Shown here: one piece after another, positions 146 to 10,524 of the stretch
Position numbering within the stretch: the first letter of the stretch is position 1
Layout of the letters: every line of letters begins with the position of its first letter
From: Patescibacteria group bacterium
Lineage (GTDB): Bacteria; Patescibacteriota; Microgenomatia; UBA1400; PJMF01
Assembly: GCA_041747555.1 (NCBI GenBank)
Contig: JBGTEY010000014.1
Span: 20,919-84,918, forward strand
Direction of reading: 5' to 3'
DNA length: 64,000 nucleotides
Notes under the pieces: generated by a model
Seen by the model: the letters and a program-made list of their open reading frames with translations, nothing else
Database searches by the model: none
What the model was told of the DNA's origin: nothing
Translations under genes and position numbers: made by a program

Positions 146-838
146 ATGTGTGGATTTTTTGCATTTACCCCAAACATGTCTCCCAGAGAACTTGCTGAAG
201 CACTTGGTGTAACCAACTTACCGTCATCAATGGACGACATTGAATCGCTCAAGTTTTATCCAAAGTCCCCTATTCCAACTGTTTCAAAAAACTCTCCAAA
301 TCAACTCGTGATCCGCCGATGGTCGCTCATCCAAAGGTGGTGGGACAAGCCACTTGAAGATTTAAAATTTAATACATTTAATGCCCGATCGGAAGATATT
401 GCAGTTAAAGCCAGCTACAGAACGCCCTGGAAATTGGGTCAGCGGTGCCTGATTCCTGCAACTTGGTTCTATGAATTTAAAGCGAAAAAAATTGATTCTA
501 AAGTTGTAAAAATTCCATATAAGGTGCTGTTTAAGAATTCAGAACTCTTCACCATGGCTGGATTATATGAGAATTGGAAGGATGGGGATAATTTAATTGA
601 ATCCGTCACCATAATTACCTGCTCAAGCGCTCTACCCCTGAAATCTATACACGATCGGCAACCAGTGATTATTGAAAAATCTGATCGAGAGAAATGGTTA
701 GATAAAAGTACGGACATGGAAAAAATTGAGTTACTGCTTAAACCGACAGCAGATTTGGAGTGTTTTGAAATAGATAGAGGGTTTAATACAGCATTTGGCG
801 ATGATGTGAAACCAAGTTTGTTAGAACTAAAATCTTGA
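146..838 (+). CDS. SOS-response-associated peptidase (SRAP / YedK, DUF159), abasic-site processing protein
   Basis: Protein begins MCGFF (the invariant Cys2 nucleophile of the SRAP family), is 230 aa, and has the conserved internal tryptophan and 'TMAGLYE' regions of the family. Confidence 0.75.
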   Translation: MCGFFAFTPNMSPRELAEALGVTNLPSSMDDIESLKFYPKSPIPTVSKNSPNQLVIRRWSLIQRWWDKPLEDLKFNTFNARSEDIAVKASYRTPWKLGQRCLIPATWFYEFKAKKIDSKVVKIPYKVLFKNSELFTMAGLYENWKDGDNLIESVTIITCSSALPLKSIHDRQPVIIEKSDREKWLDKSTDMEKIELLLKPTADLECFEIDRGFNTAFGDDVKPSLLELKS

Positions 839-849
839 GCTTCTGGAAG

Positions 850-923
850 TGGTCGCACCTGGACTCGAACCAGGGACCTCACGAATGTGAATCGTGCGCT
901 CTAACCAACTGAGCTATGCGACC
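850..923 (-). tRNA. tRNA-Val (anticodon CAC)
   Basis: The reverse complement folds as a 74-nt cloverleaf: acceptor GGTCGCA/TGCGACC, D-stem GCTC/GAGC, anticodon stem CACGA/TCGTG with loop TTCACAT (anticodon CAC), T-arm CCTGG-TTCGAGT-CCAGG, discriminator A. CCA is not encoded. Confidence 0.85.
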
Positions 924-1676: not shown

Positions 1677-2099
1677 GGGGATGTATTGCTTTGACGTGAT
1701 ACGTACTTTAACATCTGCAAGTCGCCATGATTCGGGCGTTAACTAATCAAAAAACAATAACTGGCAATCAAAACGCCGATACAGTTCCAGGTGCAAAACC
1801 AGCCAATGGCATTCTTGCTATGGGCAATGACTTTGCTTCAAACCTGAGAACTCCAGCTTTCGCTTTCGCAGCGTAAAATGGCATTCACAAGTTGTGTCTC
1901 ACTGATGCACGCTTGTGAGTGAAAACTCAGTCAGTGTGACAGTGTGTGCTCTCCTATCGGTACACACACAAGACTTAGATAGGGAGGGCGTGCGGACGGT
2001 TTGTCTCTTCACCGCGCAGGTCAATTCAAAGAGTGACTACACTTGTAGATGATGTTGCAGCTTCGTTTGCGGACAGGGGGTCACACCCCCTCATCTCCA
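1677..2099 (+). ncRNA. ssrA: tmRNA (SsrA), tag reading frame about 1802-1876 encoding ...GNDFASNLRTPAFAFAA*
   Basis: 5' GGGGATG pairs with 3' CATCTCC, including the G3:U70 wobble that is the AlaRS identity element. A TTTGACG box follows the 5' stem. The 3' tRNA-like arm GGACAGGGGGTCACACCCCCTCATCTCCA matches the tmRNA consensus GGACGGGGGTTCAAATCCCCC..CTCCA. An internal ORF ends AFAFAA-TAA, a typical degradation-tag ending. Confidence 0.75.
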
Positions 2100-2107
2100 C
2101 AGAAAAA

Positions 2108-3812: not shown

Positions 3813-5450
3813 TTATTCCAAAACAGTTTGCCCAGTTGGTAGTAAATTTACAAAATGTTCCGCTGTGCTAATATCCAGATTTGATGGATCAATACTCACT
3901 TCTAGCAACATGCCTCGCCTTGTTTCTGGACTAAAGTACTGATCAAACACAAAATTTCCCAGTGAATAATAGATCATTTTTTCTTTGTACACCTCTGATG
4001 GCTGGATAACATGAGGATGCGATCCAATGATGATATCTGCACCTTCGTCAATAAACCGATGCGCCAAGGATTGAATGGACGGATTTATTTCTGTGCTGTA
4101 TTCCACTCCCCAATGGGTATACAAAATAACCACATCTACTTGTGGTCGCACTAGTTTTAAATCATTCATTGTAGATTCAAACGCATTAGACGAAAATTCA
4201 TTGTAGTTAACAAATCCAATTTTCATCCCTTGAATATCTTTGGTAAAGTAGCTTTGATCAATTTCTGTGCCAACATTTCCAAAAAAACCAACGGATGATG
4301 CATTGAGGTAGTCAAAGGTTTGTGTCAATCCAGCCTGCCCAAAATTTAGAGTGTGATTGTTGCCCAAATTGACAATCGTAATGTTGTGATCTGATAAAAC
4401 TGCTGCTGTCTCTGGAGGTGAAGTAAAAATATAATTATTGCTTGCACCAAACGCACTCCCTTCACTTACCGATGCATTGTCTGTAATTGGGCTTTCAAGG
4501 TTAACCACCACGTGGTCAAATTCATGAAAGAAATCTCGTACATCTTGCAAAATAAAGTCATAACTTTTTTGCTTGGCAATCTGTCTAATATAACGATCAA
4601 ACGATAGATCACCAGCAAACAGCAACTTAATCTTTTCAGGTTGGACAACTACTCTTTCTCCCCTTTCATGGGTTCTTACTCCCTGTCTTGCAGGCCACTT
4701 CATTACAAAATAACTAGTGGTGCTGTCTTGCACATGATTAAACTGACTTGAGTTACCGTGAAAAATAATTTCAGGACAGCCTGATGAATATTCTTTGATT
4801 GCTTCTAATTGCAATAAAATATATACACAAGCAGGACAATCCAGGTAGTCATCACTGAGCTGTAAAGCTTCCTCAACTTGATGATTGCAAATCATCGATC
4901 GAGTTGTTACATCTAGTGAAGTTGCTTGTCCAACATCTAAATAATGAGAAAAATCTACTGACGCTAAAATCATCGTGGGTTGTTGCTGCACCTCTAGGTT
5001 GAGTCGATCAGTTAGTTCGTCTAACGCATCCTGAGGTACATTTCTAGTTACTAAATAATTCTCCACCTCTGCATGGGGAAAATACTGCTTAATATATGGC
5101 CAGTGAATGGTAGCTCCGTGGTCACCCTCAACTACTGTGTCGTCAGTCACAAGATAGTTTATATCTGGTTGATGATGGTTGGGAGATAGTAGTATTATTT
5201 TTTTAATCGTACTACCCTGGTTCGCAGAAATATTTTGATAGAAATCGTCAAATCGATCGAGTAATACGTCATGGTGTGGCAAGATTACTGCTTGTGGTAG
5301 CAACTGGGGTGATGATTGTGGCAGCGTGTTTTCTTGACTCGGGACGAAGTATATTTTTCCAAACAAATACACCAGAAACAGAAAAGCAAACAAACCTAGA
5401 ATTACTAGAAAATACTTAGACAGGCGGGGCATTATCGGGAGGCGTGGCAT
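3813..5450 (-). CDS. membrane-anchored CapA/PgsA-family metallophosphoesterase with an extra N-terminal domain
   Basis: C-terminal CapA motifs VDVVILYTHWGVEYS...GADIIIGSHPHVIQP...YYSLGNFVFDQ; N-terminal TM helix; 35-bp overlap with the upstream giant ORF, consistent with an operon. Confidence 0.65.
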   Translation of the reverse strand: MPRLPIMPRLSKYFLVILGLFAFLFLVYLFGKIYFVPSQENTLPQSSPQLLPQAVILPHHDVLLDRFDDFYQNISANQGSTIKKIILLSPNHHQPDINYLVTDDTVVEGDHGATIHWPYIKQYFPHAEVENYLVTRNVPQDALDELTDRLNLEVQQQPTMILASVDFSHYLDVGQATSLDVTTRSMICNHQVEEALQLSDDYLDCPACVYILLQLEAIKEYSSGCPEIIFHGNSSQFNHVQDSTTSYFVMKWPARQGVRTHERGERVVVQPEKIKLLFAGDLSFDRYIRQIAKQKSYDFILQDVRDFFHEFDHVVVNLESPITDNASVSEGSAFGASNNYIFTSPPETAAVLSDHNITIVNLGNNHTLNFGQAGLTQTFDYLNASSVGFFGNVGTEIDQSYFTKDIQGMKIGFVNYNEFSSNAFESTMNDLKLVRPQVDVVILYTHWGVEYSTEINPSIQSLAHRFIDEGADIIIGSHPHVIQPSEVYKEKMIYYSLGNFVFDQYFSPETRRGMLLEVSIDPSNLDISTAEHFVNLLPTGQTVLE

Positions 5451-8400
5451 CTTTTGTAAATTTTGAAAAGTGCCTTGGTTTCTTGATCCAAATTCCGTAC
5501 CCTGCTACAGGAATGAGCACTAGGATGCCAGCCACTATCCATTTCCATGAAAAAGGAAGTGAAGACTTTGCAGGGGATGGTAATTCTCCAGAAGGAAAAC
5601 TATTCTGAATAGCCAGCAATTCAAGAGAATTCTTTCCATCAATCACTAACTGGCTCGCATTGCTTCTAGCCCATAAAGTAGGGTCAAAAGAGTGCCTTAC
5701 TATCGCTGGTGGAGTATCAAAAGTCCCCTGCGAAATAACCCGAGCCTTATATCTGAATGTACTTACATCTTGGTCTGTGTAACTAATTTTCAGCTCTACA
5801 GTTTGTCCACTTATTTTTATTTGACCGAACTGGTTTTTGCCGACATTGTCAAACACGCCATTATCAAGTGACTCATCAATAGCAACTAAACCAGATGGGA
5901 GATAGTCAATTATTTCTAAATTTCTTTCTCCCAATCCTAGATTTTTAACCGTAAGCTCAACTACCACTAAGTCACCAACTTCAATTGGCTTTTCATTCTT
6001 ACTAGCTGACAAATACTTGCGACTAATTTCCAGATGATTGCTCTCACTTTCAGCCGCCCTATCAGTAATAAACTCAGTTGTTTTTACTGTCGAGTACACT
6101 GGTGATTCACCTTGATGCGTTATCTTCAATTGTCGGTCTGTAATCCCACCTACCTCAAAGGGAATTTCTACGACTTGTTCATCGCTTGATTTGAAAGTAC
6201 CTGATCTCATCACTTGATCATCCACCGACACTGTATAAGCAAGTTCTTGACTTGAGTCTGTGTAATACGCGAGGTATTCTGCGATACTTCTGATAAGAGA
6301 ATAAGAGGCCTGCTGATCACGATTTCGATACAAGAAATCTAAACCTTTTTCTACTATTTCTTGATCTGCTTTGAGTTCTATTAATGCTGCCACTGCGCGT
6401 GAAGAGTTCTTATAAATCCCACCGAATCTAAACGTTTGATCAGCTGGCCATGACAATTGATACGAGTTTTCAAACTTAAGATCGAGAATTTGTTGAATTG
6501 CAGCGGACTGATCCACAAATCCCTGGCGATAATTTGCCATAATTGCCATTAGAGCACGTTCCACATTAGTAGACGAATTGACCTCCAGATAGTGTCTCGA
6601 CAAGTCTAATTCCGGTGTTAATGAAAAAGCATATTGCTGCATGACTTGATCTTCATACTTGTTTGGTTGCCACTTTGCAAAGTATTCAATAACTGTGTTG
6701 AGTGTATTTTGATCAACAACGATCCCTGACTTACGAGCAAAAATTAATGCCTCTAGGAATTCTACTTTTTGTTCAGAACCGGTAAAGTTTTTCCAGGACT
6801 GATCTGATTCAAATGATTCAACCAACGTATGTATACTATTTTGAGCAAGTTCCTGATTTTGAGCGGAACTGTATTCAAGATTTAGCTCTGACCCAAACTG
6901 CTCACCAATTGCAACCATGGATAAAATAGCTGGAGCATTCGAAAAATATATACTTTCAGTTACTAAAATAGTCTGCCAGTCAGACTTAAATTCGGGATAT
7001 TTATTTGCTTGCAACGTTAGCACTGTTTGCGTTTTATCGCTCACAGCTCCAGTAGAAACTGGTATGTCATACGTCTGTTGATTTTCACCTAAAAGGTAGC
7101 TGTCTTGCCAAAAACCATATTCATATACGGGAATCTCATGGAAAACCTCATCGATATACTCATTTTGCCCTGTTGTTTGTGCCCTAACATGAAATGTTGC
7201 TGGACTCTGTTGACTAGTAATTTCTACTGGCCAACTCAGCGCCTCCAAACCTTTTGCAGCCAAAAGCAAAGGTTGTCCAGTTACCTGAAAATCTGAGAAA
7301 TTGAGACTAGCATCAATTTCTAAATTTAAATCTTGGTCAGTAAAATTATTAAGTAACGCTGATACATGTAAAATATCACCTTGCCTCAAGAAAGATGGCA
7401 TCACAGGCCTGACCACTAATTCTTTGGTTACAATAAACTCATCTTCACCTGAACCAACTTGTGTTTTTTGATTCGCTGATACCCCAGCAATAACCCAAGT
7501 TGTTAAATTGTCTGGCAGCTGAATGGTAACTCTTGCCTTACCCTCAGCATCAGTGGCAACATGCGGGTTCCAATATGCAGTATCTTTAAATATTGACCTA
7601 CTATCACCCTTATCATTGTGTACATAAATCCCATTTGCAATAAATGTGTGGTATGTATCAACAGTTAGGTTGTATACTGAGAATTTTCCCCGCATCCACT
7701 CAATAGAAGAAACGCGCTCTGTAAGACCTTCTGCTGTGGTCAATTCGTCACCAACTTTGAGTTGACCGGCTGTCTGCCACTTACCATTCACTAATAACTT
7801 ATGTTCTGGAGTAATTTTTAAATCTTGATTGATAATGAGATACCCATCTACCTCAACCAGATGAGTGTCGGTAACTTGTGCAGAGACAAGCTCATCACTA
7901 GTGCTCGATTTTAACGTTTGTATCCAGTCTCCTGTTTTGACCTGACTTATTTCTTTGAGTGACGAATCTGACATTAAAATTGAAGTATCTGCTGCAAAAC
8001 AACCTCCGCCACCTTCTGCTCCTGAGCTTGATAATCCCTCGAAGGAGTGATGCAGCAGCGGGAAGGTGTATCGCTCGCCCCAGAATGTGTCGAAAATTCT
8101 CCCGTAATTATCCCTGTTCAATTCCAGCAACGCCTTATCAAACACCCATACACTGACGTCTGTTTGAACTGGATTGCCTAGGGCATCTTTGGCAGCTATG
8201 TCCACTATTGCTGTTTGAGCAGGACCATATATTTCTTGATCAAAATCAAATGTAAGCTCCACCTTCTTATCGTCGGTACTAACCTCAACATCTTGACTTC
8301 CTTGCACCCAATAATCACCAACAAAACTGCCGGCTGCCACGCGAACATTGGGCTGATAGTCTTCTGGAATAGTGAGTGAGAACTGCTTACTACCGTTGGT

Positions 8401-10524
8401 CAGAACTTGGTACGTTTTGGAATAACTTCGTCCCACATAGACAAACAGATCTTGAGACTCAAAGCTGGGAAGTAACGTAATTGTAGCAGTTTCTCCAGGT
8501 GCATAACTGTCTTTGTCTGTTTCTATATCAATTTTTTCTCCACCCATAATTGAGTTTTTTACTTCTTCTGTTCTGACATAAAAATGCATATCACCTCTTA
8601 TGACATTGTCATGCTTATCTCGAGCTTCAAACTCAATCTCGTGACTGTCAGATTTTTTGGGGGTGTAACTCATAGTTACCTCACCCTCATTATTAGAAAT
8701 CAGGCGTTGAGCTTCACCCACCGGAAATCTTTTGTCTCCTGAATGTATCTCATAAACTTGCGCGGAAACTTCTATTCCATTCGTATCAACGCCTGCTTTT
8801 GTTGGCAAAATGTTTATAGAAAAATTACTATTTTTACTAATTACGTGAGAATTATTACGGTTTGAAGGGTTTTGTTCGATTACAAAATCACCTGGATTTA
8901 TCAAAATTTGCCTGGCATCGTTTGTGGCTGTCCCAGTCGCATCTACATACTCCAAAACAATAGCCCACATTTGCCGATAGCCTGTGGTATTTTTCACATC
9001 TATCTCTAGGTCAGCGACACCATTTTTATCCAACTGCAGACTACCTTGTGCAATTATTGGACTTCGTGCACCGAAATCAGTAACGCTGGTATTGAAAGTG
9101 ATTCCTTCATAATGACCATCTAGACTTGCTTTATACTGGTACACTTTATATCTCACTGTTTGATCGCTCAACGGTTGACCCAAAAAATAGCTACCCTTAG
9201 CCTGAGCCTTGAATGTATCGCCTGGATAATATGTATGCTCTTCTAGATGTAATGAAATTTCGCTATCAGGCTTACGAAACTCAGCTACCTGAACTGACGT
9301 TCCGGTTAAATATGTATCACCGTCATAAACTGTTAAACTGTAATATCCCACTTCCAAATCATCGGGTAAGCTGATTTCATGATCAATTGTTCCCAAATCA
9401 TCAATTAATAATTGCGCTTCATACAAATTATTTTGCCCATTTTGACCTCCAGATAATACTGCTCTCACTTGACCACTTGGTAATGAATACGAAGCATCAT
9501 CATCTGTGCGAAAAATTGCCTTGTAATACAGTGTGTCTCCTGGCTTGTAGATAAAACGGTCAGTGAAAATGAATGATTTTTTGTCAATTATTCTTGGCCC
9601 GAAAGAGTAATACGAACCATTTTGATTGCGATGCGCAAAACCATTGAGGTTAATCGGCACAATTGTCAGGGAGTTATTATGAGAAACAATGGCAATGTCC
9701 AATGCATCACTCGCTGCCACTTCAACAATGCCTTGATCATTGGTGGACACGTCTCCCAGAGTTTTCACGGTGTCTTGTGTATTTAAGAGCTTGATCTTTG
9801 CATCAGCAACGAGCTTTTTATCACTATCTTGTACCCAGAACGTAATTTTGTTATCAGATTTATTTGCTACGCCCGCCAGTGACGATCTTACAATTACTGT
9901 TTTAATTTTTTGGTCTTGGTGCGTTCCCTCTAGATACCATATGCCCTCCTGCTCTAAGTCGAGGTTTGGCCGAGACTGGTGATCCTGGCTTGAATCACCA
10001 CCAATTTGCTGATTAAACGTTGAAACGAGCTCAAGTTGATTCGTATCGAACTCATACAATTTTTTTAATTGGCTTCCATACCAGCCCTCACTTTCTTTAG
10101 ATGAATAGCGGAGATAATTAAGTAAATCTTCTTCATTGATCTTATATAAACTAAAATTTACTTCTTCTTTAAAGTTCCAGGAGCGAATTTCAACGACCGG
10201 CTCCATAGCGCTACTCAGAACAATTACACCTTCATTCATGTTTCTACCAATATTGGATGTAAAGTAAACACTATCGCTTAAGCCAAGCACATCGCCCTCG
10301 GGTTTTTCTGCGATCGGTTGCGGTGAAGCAGTGACAGCTTTAAAGCGAGGTGGCGGTGAGGATTGCTCCACCCTTGCCCCTGTATTAGAAAAATAGTTTT
10401 GAGTCAAATAGATTGATGTTGAGCTAGAAACTACGATGCTGACGACCACAAATAAAAAAAGAACGGTAGGTAAGCGCGAGAAGTGCATCAGCGCACTCTG
10501 TAGTTTCTTTTTTTCGGGAGACAT
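5416..10524 (-). CDS. giant (1702 aa) alpha-2-macroglobulin-like surface protein with an inserted Hint (intein/Hedgehog-like) domain and N- and C-terminal TM anchors
   Basis: A2M_N_2/MG7-like segment 'FKDTAYWNPHVATDAEGKARVTIQLPDNLTTWVIAG'. Alpha/alpha-toroid region with degenerate thioester site AIGEQ (canonical CxEQ). Hint blocks CFAADTSILM ... TPEH ... VYNLTVDTYHTFIANGIYVHN. Hydrophobic helices at both termini. Confidence 0.7.
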   Translation of the reverse strand: MSPEKKKLQSALMHFSRLPTVLFLFVVVSIVVSSSTSIYLTQNYFSNTGARVEQSSPPPRFKAVTASPQPIAEKPEGDVLGLSDSVYFTSNIGRNMNEGVIVLSSAMEPVVEIRSWNFKEEVNFSLYKINEEDLLNYLRYSSKESEGWYGSQLKKLYEFDTNQLELVSTFNQQIGGDSSQDHQSRPNLDLEQEGIWYLEGTHQDQKIKTVIVRSSLAGVANKSDNKITFWVQDSDKKLVADAKIKLLNTQDTVKTLGDVSTNDQGIVEVAASDALDIAIVSHNNSLTIVPINLNGFAHRNQNGSYYSFGPRIIDKKSFIFTDRFIYKPGDTLYYKAIFRTDDDASYSLPSGQVRAVLSGGQNGQNNLYEAQLLIDDLGTIDHEISLPDDLEVGYYSLTVYDGDTYLTGTSVQVAEFRKPDSEISLHLEEHTYYPGDTFKAQAKGSYFLGQPLSDQTVRYKVYQYKASLDGHYEGITFNTSVTDFGARSPIIAQGSLQLDKNGVADLEIDVKNTTGYRQMWAIVLEYVDATGTATNDARQILINPGDFVIEQNPSNRNNSHVISKNSNFSINILPTKAGVDTNGIEVSAQVYEIHSGDKRFPVGEAQRLISNNEGEVTMSYTPKKSDSHEIEFEARDKHDNVIRGDMHFYVRTEEVKNSIMGGEKIDIETDKDSYAPGETATITLLPSFESQDLFVYVGRSYSKTYQVLTNGSKQFSLTIPEDYQPNVRVAAGSFVGDYWVQGSQDVEVSTDDKKVELTFDFDQEIYGPAQTAIVDIAAKDALGNPVQTDVSVWVFDKALLELNRDNYGRIFDTFWGERYTFPLLHHSFEGLSSSGAEGGGGCFAADTSILMSDSSLKEISQVKTGDWIQTLKSSTSDELVSAQVTDTHLVEVDGYLIINQDLKITPEHKLLVNGKWQTAGQLKVGDELTTAEGLTERVSSIEWMRGKFSVYNLTVDTYHTFIANGIYVHNDKGDSRSIFKDTAYWNPHVATDAEGKARVTIQLPDNLTTWVIAGVSANQKTQVGSGEDEFIVTKELVVRPVMPSFLRQGDILHVSALLNNFTDQDLNLEIDASLNFSDFQVTGQPLLLAAKGLEALSWPVEITSQQSPATFHVRAQTTGQNEYIDEVFHEIPVYEYGFWQDSYLLGENQQTYDIPVSTGAVSDKTQTVLTLQANKYPEFKSDWQTILVTESIYFSNAPAILSMVAIGEQFGSELNLEYSSAQNQELAQNSIHTLVESFESDQSWKNFTGSEQKVEFLEALIFARKSGIVVDQNTLNTVIEYFAKWQPNKYEDQVMQQYAFSLTPELDLSRHYLEVNSSTNVERALMAIMANYRQGFVDQSAAIQQILDLKFENSYQLSWPADQTFRFGGIYKNSSRAVAALIELKADQEIVEKGLDFLYRNRDQQASYSLIRSIAEYLAYYTDSSQELAYTVSVDDQVMRSGTFKSSDEQVVEIPFEVGGITDRQLKITHQGESPVYSTVKTTEFITDRAAESESNHLEISRKYLSASKNEKPIEVGDLVVVELTVKNLGLGERNLEIIDYLPSGLVAIDESLDNGVFDNVGKNQFGQIKISGQTVELKISYTDQDVSTFRYKARVISQGTFDTPPAIVRHSFDPTLWARSNASQLVIDGKNSLELLAIQNSFPSGELPSPAKSSLPFSWKWIVAGILVLIPVAGYGIWIKKPRHFSKFTKDATPPDNAPPV
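7615..8001 (-). other. Hint / bacterial intein-like domain (129 aa) embedded in the giant ORF
   Basis: Cys codon at 7999-8001 is preceded by GGGG (Hedgehog-like G|CF site); the domain ends HN-D at 7612-7620; block B TxxH is present. Confidence 0.7.

Follow-up and report, generated by a model that had tools for sequence, protein, structure and literature searches.

Bacterial alpha-2-macroglobulins (A2Ms) of Type I, represented by ECAM/YfhM and SaA2M (PDB codes 4u48, 4ziu, 5a42 and 4rtd), are membrane-tethered, extracytoplasmic proteins with the domain order MG-BRD-MG7-CUB-TED-CTMG. Their thioester lies in a pocket formed by tyrosines of the TED (Y1183 and Y1185 in ECAM, the Y-P-Y of YPYGC) and by the Met and Tyr of the ExMY motif of the CTMG domain, and in both SaA2M and ECAM this M-Y pair covers the thioester (Fyfe et al., PMC4498604). 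The Type II proteins, Pseudomonas aeruginosa MagD and Escherichia coli YfaS, have the A2M multidomain scaffold without C-x-E-Q, and MagD, once its bait has been cleaved, still holds a protease by non-covalent means (PMC5764988). For bacteria of the candidate phyla radiation (CPR), a protective role against host proteases has been suggested for membrane proteins with A2M domains (PMC8080830), and an A2M homologue has been noted in WWE3 (PMC9793634). Here we describe an A2M gene found in a stretch of 64,000 nucleotides from contig JBGTEY010000014.1 of a Patescibacteria group bacterium (assembly GCA_041747555.1); this whole stretch is the window referred to below. From sequence comparison we consider it rather probable that the product, of 1702 residues, is a membrane-tethered A2M-family surface protein of a Microgenomates-group (Patescibacteria/CPR) bacterium in which the thioester apparatus has been wholly lost. 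The features that bear on this loss are:

5416..10524, minus strand: A2M/TEP-superfamily open reading frame (ORF) of 1702 amino acids (aa), uninterrupted, defined by the ORF and its translation; sequence identical to P0001

6262..6990, minus strand: TED-like alpha/alpha toroid, aa 1179-1421, with 12 predicted helices, strongly diverged (AlphaFold2 (AF2) model)

6937..6960, minus strand: T1189-E-S-I-Y1193-F-S-N1196, the homologue of Y-P-Y-G-C-x-E-Q (MAFFT, hhalign and the loop-helix junction of the AF2 model)

5686..5691, minus strand: S1612-F1613, replacing the M-Y of CTMG (alignment with VESMYVPQ of YfhM and with relatives)

Three MAFFT alignments (with 15 relatives, with 40, and with 30 that include E. 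coli YfhM/ECAM) agree in placing the thioester motif over T1189-N1196. The E. coli reference was taken from NC_000913 and has its thioester at C1187-L-E-Q. The same register is obtained with hhalign when the thioester-less clade is compared with the thioester-bearing clade (probability 100, ungapped from the start of MG7 through the site), while a hidden Markov model (HMM) of 82 thioester-bearing TEDs aligns the PQGGGDQ of one orthologue (P0005) to YPYgCvEQ, which by transitivity is consistent with this mapping. The AF2 model is consistent with it as well: a helix (1179-1188) leads through a loop (1189-1193) into a second helix (1194-1210), and Y1193 stands at the loop-to-helix junction. At the site so defined the Cys is replaced by Tyr1193, the Glu by Ser1195 and the Gln by Asn1196, and the pocket tyrosines by T1189 and S1191. 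Read from these alignments, the loss of the thioester is complete, as the Cys, the Glu, the Gln, both pocket tyrosines and the M-Y lid are all gone.

The cysteine content points the same way. The protein has one Cys only, C842, which is the first residue of the Hint domain described below, and therefore no alignment could rescue a Cys-Gln thioester. Covalent protease trapping by such a TED thioester had been ruled out in the original prediction made for this DNA, and that part of it stands, with the sole Cys committed to the Hint domain and both the octapeptide and the M-Y lock replaced. Four close orthologues (P0002-P0005) also have one Cys each, and thioester-bearing relatives (for example P0008, P0009, L007, L008 and L010) as a rule carry just one more, that of the thioester, besides the Hint Cys1. 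Cysteine is almost absent across the family, the thioester-less members having just that of the Hint domain. A substitute Ser/Thr ester or isopeptide bond at Y-F-S-N was considered and rejected; the residues are conserved in the four closest orthologues only, and no partner residue is evident. With site, pocket and lid erased together, the protein is a cleaner natural "knock-out" than had been supposed.

The original prediction had placed the site elsewhere, at SMVAIGEQFG, and had read it as a degenerate motif in which the Cys is Ile and the E-Q is kept. The letters themselves are present: window positions 6898-6909, reverse-complemented, read ATT GGT GAG CAG and encode I1206-G-E-Q1209, so that AIGEQ is aa 1205-1209 of the ORF (wider context ILSMVAIGEQFGSE), and they do fall inside the predicted toroid, in the model helix 1194-1210. 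The eukaryotic thioester motif is G-C-G-E-Q, and this likeness probably accounts for the attention that IGEQ drew. The likeness, together with a location within the first TED-like helix, is what speaks for AIGEQ as the thioester motif itself, degenerate at its Cys only. We regard this as highly improbable. Every alignment places YPYGCxEQ 13 residues upstream of AIGEQ, over window positions 6937-6960, where Tyr1193 is the residue aligned with the thioester Cys and S1195-N1196 are those aligned with E-Q; the true motif is thus elsewhere in the protein, but no intact Cys is found there. Where IGEQ stands, the thioester-bearing relatives have L-A-R-A or I-A-K-x, and the closest orthologues, those of 50-55% identity included, have VGDI, VGEL, IVNQ, VAKE or ILRT. 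In the AF2 model IGEQ is four turns away from Y1193, at the C-terminal end of the 17-residue first TED helix and not at the loop-helix junction. Chance would give 6.3 EQ dipeptides over the whole protein and 2.95 within the TED-like region, and the numbers counted are 6 and 3; one or more EQs would turn up by chance no further than 20 residues to either side of the true thioester site with P = 0.26. Because EQ is at chance frequency and the orthologues do not conserve it there, IGEQ is a chance look-alike, unrelated to the thioester position.

The loss is set in a scaffold that is otherwise recognizably that of an A2M. The domain order is an N-terminal transmembrane (TM) segment, MG domains, BRD, Hint, MG7 (A2M), a CUB-like domain, the TED-like toroid, bMG10/CTMG and a C-terminal TM segment, for which the remaining features are:

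10405..10473, minus strand: N-terminal hydrophobic segment, a predicted signal anchor, aa 18-40 (Kyte-Doolittle scan)

aa 317-413: MG2 (Pfam, 1.1e-12, over the curated cut-off)

aa 665-802: A2M_BRD (Pfam, 2.2e-15, over the curated cut-off)

aa 982-1070: A2M/MG7 (Pfam, 3.9e-19, over the curated cut-off)

aa 1500-1615: bMG10 (Pfam, 5.5e-10, over the cut-off)

5479..5547, minus strand: C-terminal TM anchor, aa 1660-1682, followed by the basic tail KKPRH (Kyte-Doolittle scan)

The C-terminal anchor is found also in relatives of the protein. No lipobox Cys is present, the N-terminal region being without any Cys, and Pfam detected no adhesin-type domain in the protein beyond weak Big_1/DUF11 matches. 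The AF2 model of aa 975-1640 (mean pLDDT 86.9, pTM 0.84) has as its best Foldseek matches SaA2M (4u48) and ECAM (4ziu), with E ~1e-28, and a family profile searched against the PDB finds 4u48 with E = 7e-168. The TED is where recognition fails. A single-sequence phmmer search of the PDB aligned pieces of MG, MG7 and CTMG and left the TED unaligned; Pfam TED_complement gave no match at E <= 10, on the whole protein or on aa 1140-1480 alone; and with the HMM of 82 thioester-bearing TEDs the match is confined to aa 1257-1471 (E = 8.5e-15), aa 1175-1256 being skipped. MG domains, BRD, MG7, a toroid TED and a C-terminal MG domain are nevertheless all present, and the protein is a member of the A2M/TEP/complement superfamily.

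To see how the loss is distributed, 1.84 billion representative proteins were scanned with HMMER, which gave 505 matches at E <= 1e-30; an alignment-based census was made of the 135 full-length members among the best 150 of these. Both C-x-E-Q and M-Y are present in 119 of them, C-x-E-Q with L-Y in 1, and neither motif in 15; no sequence keeps M-Y without C-x-E-Q. About one in nine representative sequences (15/135) is thus thioester-less. The closest homologues (P0002-P0006, 36-55% identity) have no C-x-E-Q anywhere, and the next ones (P0007-P0013, 27-31% identity, Hint at the same insertion) read Y-P-Y-G-C-V-E-Q-T-T-S. In a neighbour-joining (NJ) tree of the 135 sequences all 15 thioester-less members form one clade, and in a small NJ tree two loci (L013/L014) and P0014 stand apart from the clade of the window protein, giving three groups. 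The two trees suggest between one and three independent losses, and the co-variation of C-x-E-Q with M-Y may therefore rest on few events. Mean identity within the thioester-less clade is 0.31 for the TED and 0.30 for the CUB-like MG8, against 0.42-0.63 for the other domains; within the thioester-bearing clade the values are 0.37 for the TED and 0.27 for MG8/CUB, against 0.36-0.54. The faster divergence of the TED in the thioester-less clade is modest evidence for relaxed constraint. Comparison of sequences with and without the thioester amounts to a natural experiment on the role left to the TED when covalent capture has been lost.

The RNase J encoded beside the locus is 90% identical to that of a metagenome-assembled genome (MAG) labelled "Microgenomates group bacterium" and 64% identical to that of Woesebacteria. 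The related loci come from MAGs of WWE3, the Patescibacteria group and Wirthbacteria. At the aligned thioester site, the Hint-bearing L013 (CAZTME010000047.1) reads I-W-I-E-Q, a genuine degenerate motif with Cys changed to Trp and E-Q retained, and L014 reads Y-S-W-H-D-R.

Among described proteins, those of Type II provide the best functional analogy. Unlike MagD and YfaS, the window protein has a TM anchor at either end, carries a Hint domain in its bait region and is encoded next to a Memo-like partner gene. At the thioester site E. coli YfaS has EPWGGVIN, as aligned by the whole-family HMM, the K-12 yfaS being a pseudogene whose one internal stop was read through; the HMM of 82 thioester-bearing TEDs did not detect YfaS. 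The family HMM scores YfaS at 250 bits and YfhM at 227 bits, and only YfhM aligns through TED and CTMG. No significant tblastn match to YfaA, YfaT, YfaQ or YfaP was found in the window or the related loci, and the window holds no magABCDEF or yfaA-T-S-Q-P partners. The likeness to YfaS-type paralogs proposed in the original prediction is accordingly fair as a functional analogy and does not extend to membership, with neither yfa/mag operon genes nor pbpC in the window and a Hint-bearing family that otherwise reads YPYGCVEQTTS. A paralogue with intact C-x-E-Q, which the same prediction had suggested looking for, is not found within the 64-kb window. Since the thioester-less sequences are nested in a Hint-bearing and otherwise thioester-positive Patescibacteria family, the loss is probably separate from that of the YfaS/MagD lineage.

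The best structural and profile matches are to the Type I proteins, which the window protein resembles in domain order and in its tethered, extracytoplasmic disposition. It lacks their CLEQ, Tyr-x-Tyr pocket, CTMG M-Y or RDDR motif and lipobox, and carries Hint in the bait; a tblastn search with E. coli PbpC found nothing in the window at E <= 1. Without C-x-E-Q, pocket, lipobox or an adjacent pbpC, it is not a Type I bacterial A2M. Its nearest kin are the thioester-bearing Hint-A2Ms of Patescibacteria (P0007-P0011, L007 and L008; more than 100 representative clusters), which are members of this family (27-31% identical across more than 90% of the length) and share the Hint insertion point, its junctions, the C-terminal TM anchor and the downstream Memo-like gene, but retain YPYGCVEQTTS, the M-Y lid and the second Cys. 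Complement C5 also has a TED fold without a Cys-Gln thioester, and, once cleaved, acts by a change of conformation. The Foldseek matches of the aa 975-1640 model include structures of C5; the homology is distant (11-14% identity), and C5 is soluble and without Hint. With MagD/YfaS and C5 already known as thioester-less members of the A2M family, the loss in itself is unsurprising. New here is a loss, probably a separate one, in a new architecture, and the Hint-in-bait macroglobulin with its Memo-like partner is of more interest than the loss of the thioester. The Hint domain is located as follows:

7615..8001, minus strand: Hint/bacterial-intein-like (BIL) domain, aa 842-970, with C842, T905xxH908 and H969-N970, followed by D971; inserted in the bait region

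Pfam PT-HINT, Intein and Vint matches span aa 838-971 (PT-HINT 5e-12, over its cut-off); Intein_splicing (1.9e-08, 34.7 bits) falls just below its cut-off of 35.8, and TIGR01443 intein_Cterm of NCBIfam also matches. C842, T905, H908, H969, N970 and D971 are invariant in six orthologues. The domain is flanked by SFEGLSSSGAEGGGG upstream and DKGDSRSIFKDTAYWNP downstream and occupies the position of the ECAM bait, of which residues 923-942 are disordered and residues 956-963 bind CTMG after cleavage (PMC4498604). Insertion point and junctions (AEGGGG|CF ... VHN|D/E/Q-KG) are common to more than 100 representative relatives. Residue -1 is Gly in all 116 relatives compared. The +1 residue is Q in 45 of them, D in 37, E in 13, G in 11, K and S in 3 each, N in 2, and A and L in 1 each; it is Q, D, E or G in 106/116 and non-nucleophilic in 113/116, Ser occurring in 3. 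In the window protein it is D971, in place of the Cys, Ser or Thr of a canonical class 1 intein. Cys1, the block-B TxxH, the C-terminal His-Asn, the non-nucleophilic +1 and a secreted or surface host protein are all shared with A-type BIL and PT-HINT domains, which without a +1 nucleophile yield mainly N- and C-terminal cleavage products rather than splicing (PMC7664689); the difference is that the host here is an A2M, with the insertion in its bait region. By these residues the Hint domain shows the BIL pattern. Two family members without Hint, P0128 (1591 aa) and P0012 (1611 aa), have a precise empty site, which implies one or more clean gains or losses of the domain; P0128 is also thioester-less. 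The literature searched (A2M with Hint/intein; A2M in CPR) yielded no description of an A2M whose bait holds a Hint or intein domain. What we describe is thus a large family of CPR/Patescibacteria surface macroglobulins with an intein-like domain in the bait region, apparently undescribed in that literature, and it raises the question of whether the A2M type of conformational activation can be autocatalytic.

Immediately downstream of the A2M gene, and overlapping its stop by about 35 nucleotides, is a partner gene:

3813..5450, minus strand: TM-anchored fusion gene with an N-terminal TM segment, a Memo-like (AmmeMemoRadiSam-B-like) domain and a PGA_cap (CapA-like) domain (Pfam and NCBIfam)

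Memo-like genes are likewise found directly after the A2M gene, or overlapping it, at L007, L008, L010, L011, L014, L016 and L017/L018 and on the P0007 contig, next to thioester-positive and thioester-negative relatives alike. At L017/L018, the contigs with the thioester-less P0006, the A2M-Memo pair lies amid genes for glycosyltransferases, a Wzx-type flippase (Polysacc_synt) and a Wzy_C polymerase, a context that suggests a link to envelope polysaccharide synthesis.

As to function, we propose that the protein works without TED-mediated covalent capture and would most likely act non-covalently, as the thioester-less MagD does, forming a cage or shield at the outer surface of the cytoplasmic membrane. 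The Hint domain, not a foreign protease alone, would make the chain break at the bait position, by N- and C-terminal cleavage of the BIL type or by splicing, and after its excision each half would stay on the cell via its own anchor. This tethered cage with a Hint-made break in the bait is, as a function predicted from sequence, moderately probable. Several points weigh against it or against the site mapping beneath it. The site alignments and the AF2 model share homologous sequences and are not fully independent, and the first ~80 TED residues are too diverged for HMM alignment. The Hint-less P0012 carries the exact "spliced" sequence GAEGGGG-GD (GAEGGGG-GDFRS) at its empty site. The segment flanking Hint (SFEGLSSSGAEGGGG / DKGDSRS) is short and family-conserved, unlike the hypervariable bait of a protease trap, and this weakens the classical trap reading. 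The Memo-like/PGA_cap partner and the polysaccharide-synthesis neighbours may point to a role in envelope biogenesis or structure.

Such a role is the main rival, although we think it unlikely. The macroglobulin scaffold would here be re-used for cell-surface architecture or host attachment and not as a protease trap; the protein's partner in this would be the extracytoplasmic Memo-like/PGA_cap enzyme, and the TED-like domain would serve simply for binding. The conserved, overlapping partner gene, the one relative's locus set among glycosyltransferase, Wzx and Wzy genes, the anchors at both protein ends, the short conserved bait flanks and the fast divergence of the TED after thioester loss would all fit, and interaction with the host is the role generally discussed for the large surface proteins of CPR epibionts (PMC13059738). 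Yet the full A2M domain set, BRD and CTMG included, is retained under purifying selection, the thioester-less MagD still traps proteases, and apart from the weak matches noted above no adhesin-type domain is seen. Outright decay, with the gene a pseudogene-like remnant and its TED eroding, would explain why the thioester region has diverged past HMM and Pfam recognition, but is very improbable for an uninterrupted ORF of 1702 codons whose orthologues at 36-55% identity retain full length, architecture, Hint catalytic residues and synteny, and whose thioester-less state is shared by about 15 representative clusters.

A further alternative is that the chemistry has moved. The transient Gly841~Cys842 thioester of the Hint domain would be resolved by an external nucleophile, leaving the MG1-6 half attached to a cell-wall, lipid or host-surface molecule. 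That the sole Cys is the Hint Cys1, that the junction GGGG|CF has an invariable Gly at -1 and resembles the G|CF of Hedgehog, and that a non-nucleophilic +1 residue blocks canonical trans-esterification (PMC7664689) are all compatible with this. However, the same Hint domain and junctions occur in more than 100 relatives that retain the TED thioester, so Hint did not arise as a replacement for it; its C-terminal H-N is conserved as in self-excising BIL and intein domains, unlike in Hedgehog, and no adduct-specifying domain comparable to a sterol-recognition region is seen. We therefore hold this alternative to be improbable. It is similarly doubtful that the self-cleaving Hint, in place of the A2M bait, is a built-in "convertase" giving autonomous activation, with the N-terminal half transferred in Hedgehog style to an envelope or host molecule from the Gly841~Cys842 intermediate, the one acyl-thioester chemistry remaining to the thioester-less sequences; if true, the TED would have ceded the part of covalent warhead to the bait.

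Around the A2M gene, the window holds the Memo/PGA_cap, HAD, ABC transporter and DUF4349 genes. Just downstream of the locus are genes for a tmRNA (1677-2102, plus strand, 96 bits), a tRNA (850-923, minus strand) and SRAP (SOS-response-associated peptidase; 146-838, plus strand). Several MAG records titled "uncultured Pseudomonadales/Gammaproteobacteria bacterium" (L007, L009 and L011-L014, and the names of P0296 and P0303) carry Patescibacteria-type genes, and one RNase J labelled "Pseudomonadales bacterium" is "Candidatus Woesebacteria" in nr; the Pseudomonadales and Gammaproteobacteria labels on these MAGs are likely a taxonomic mislabel in the public records. On the upstream side, the P0002 contig (L016) shows synteny with the window in its order of A2M, FtsK and RNase J.

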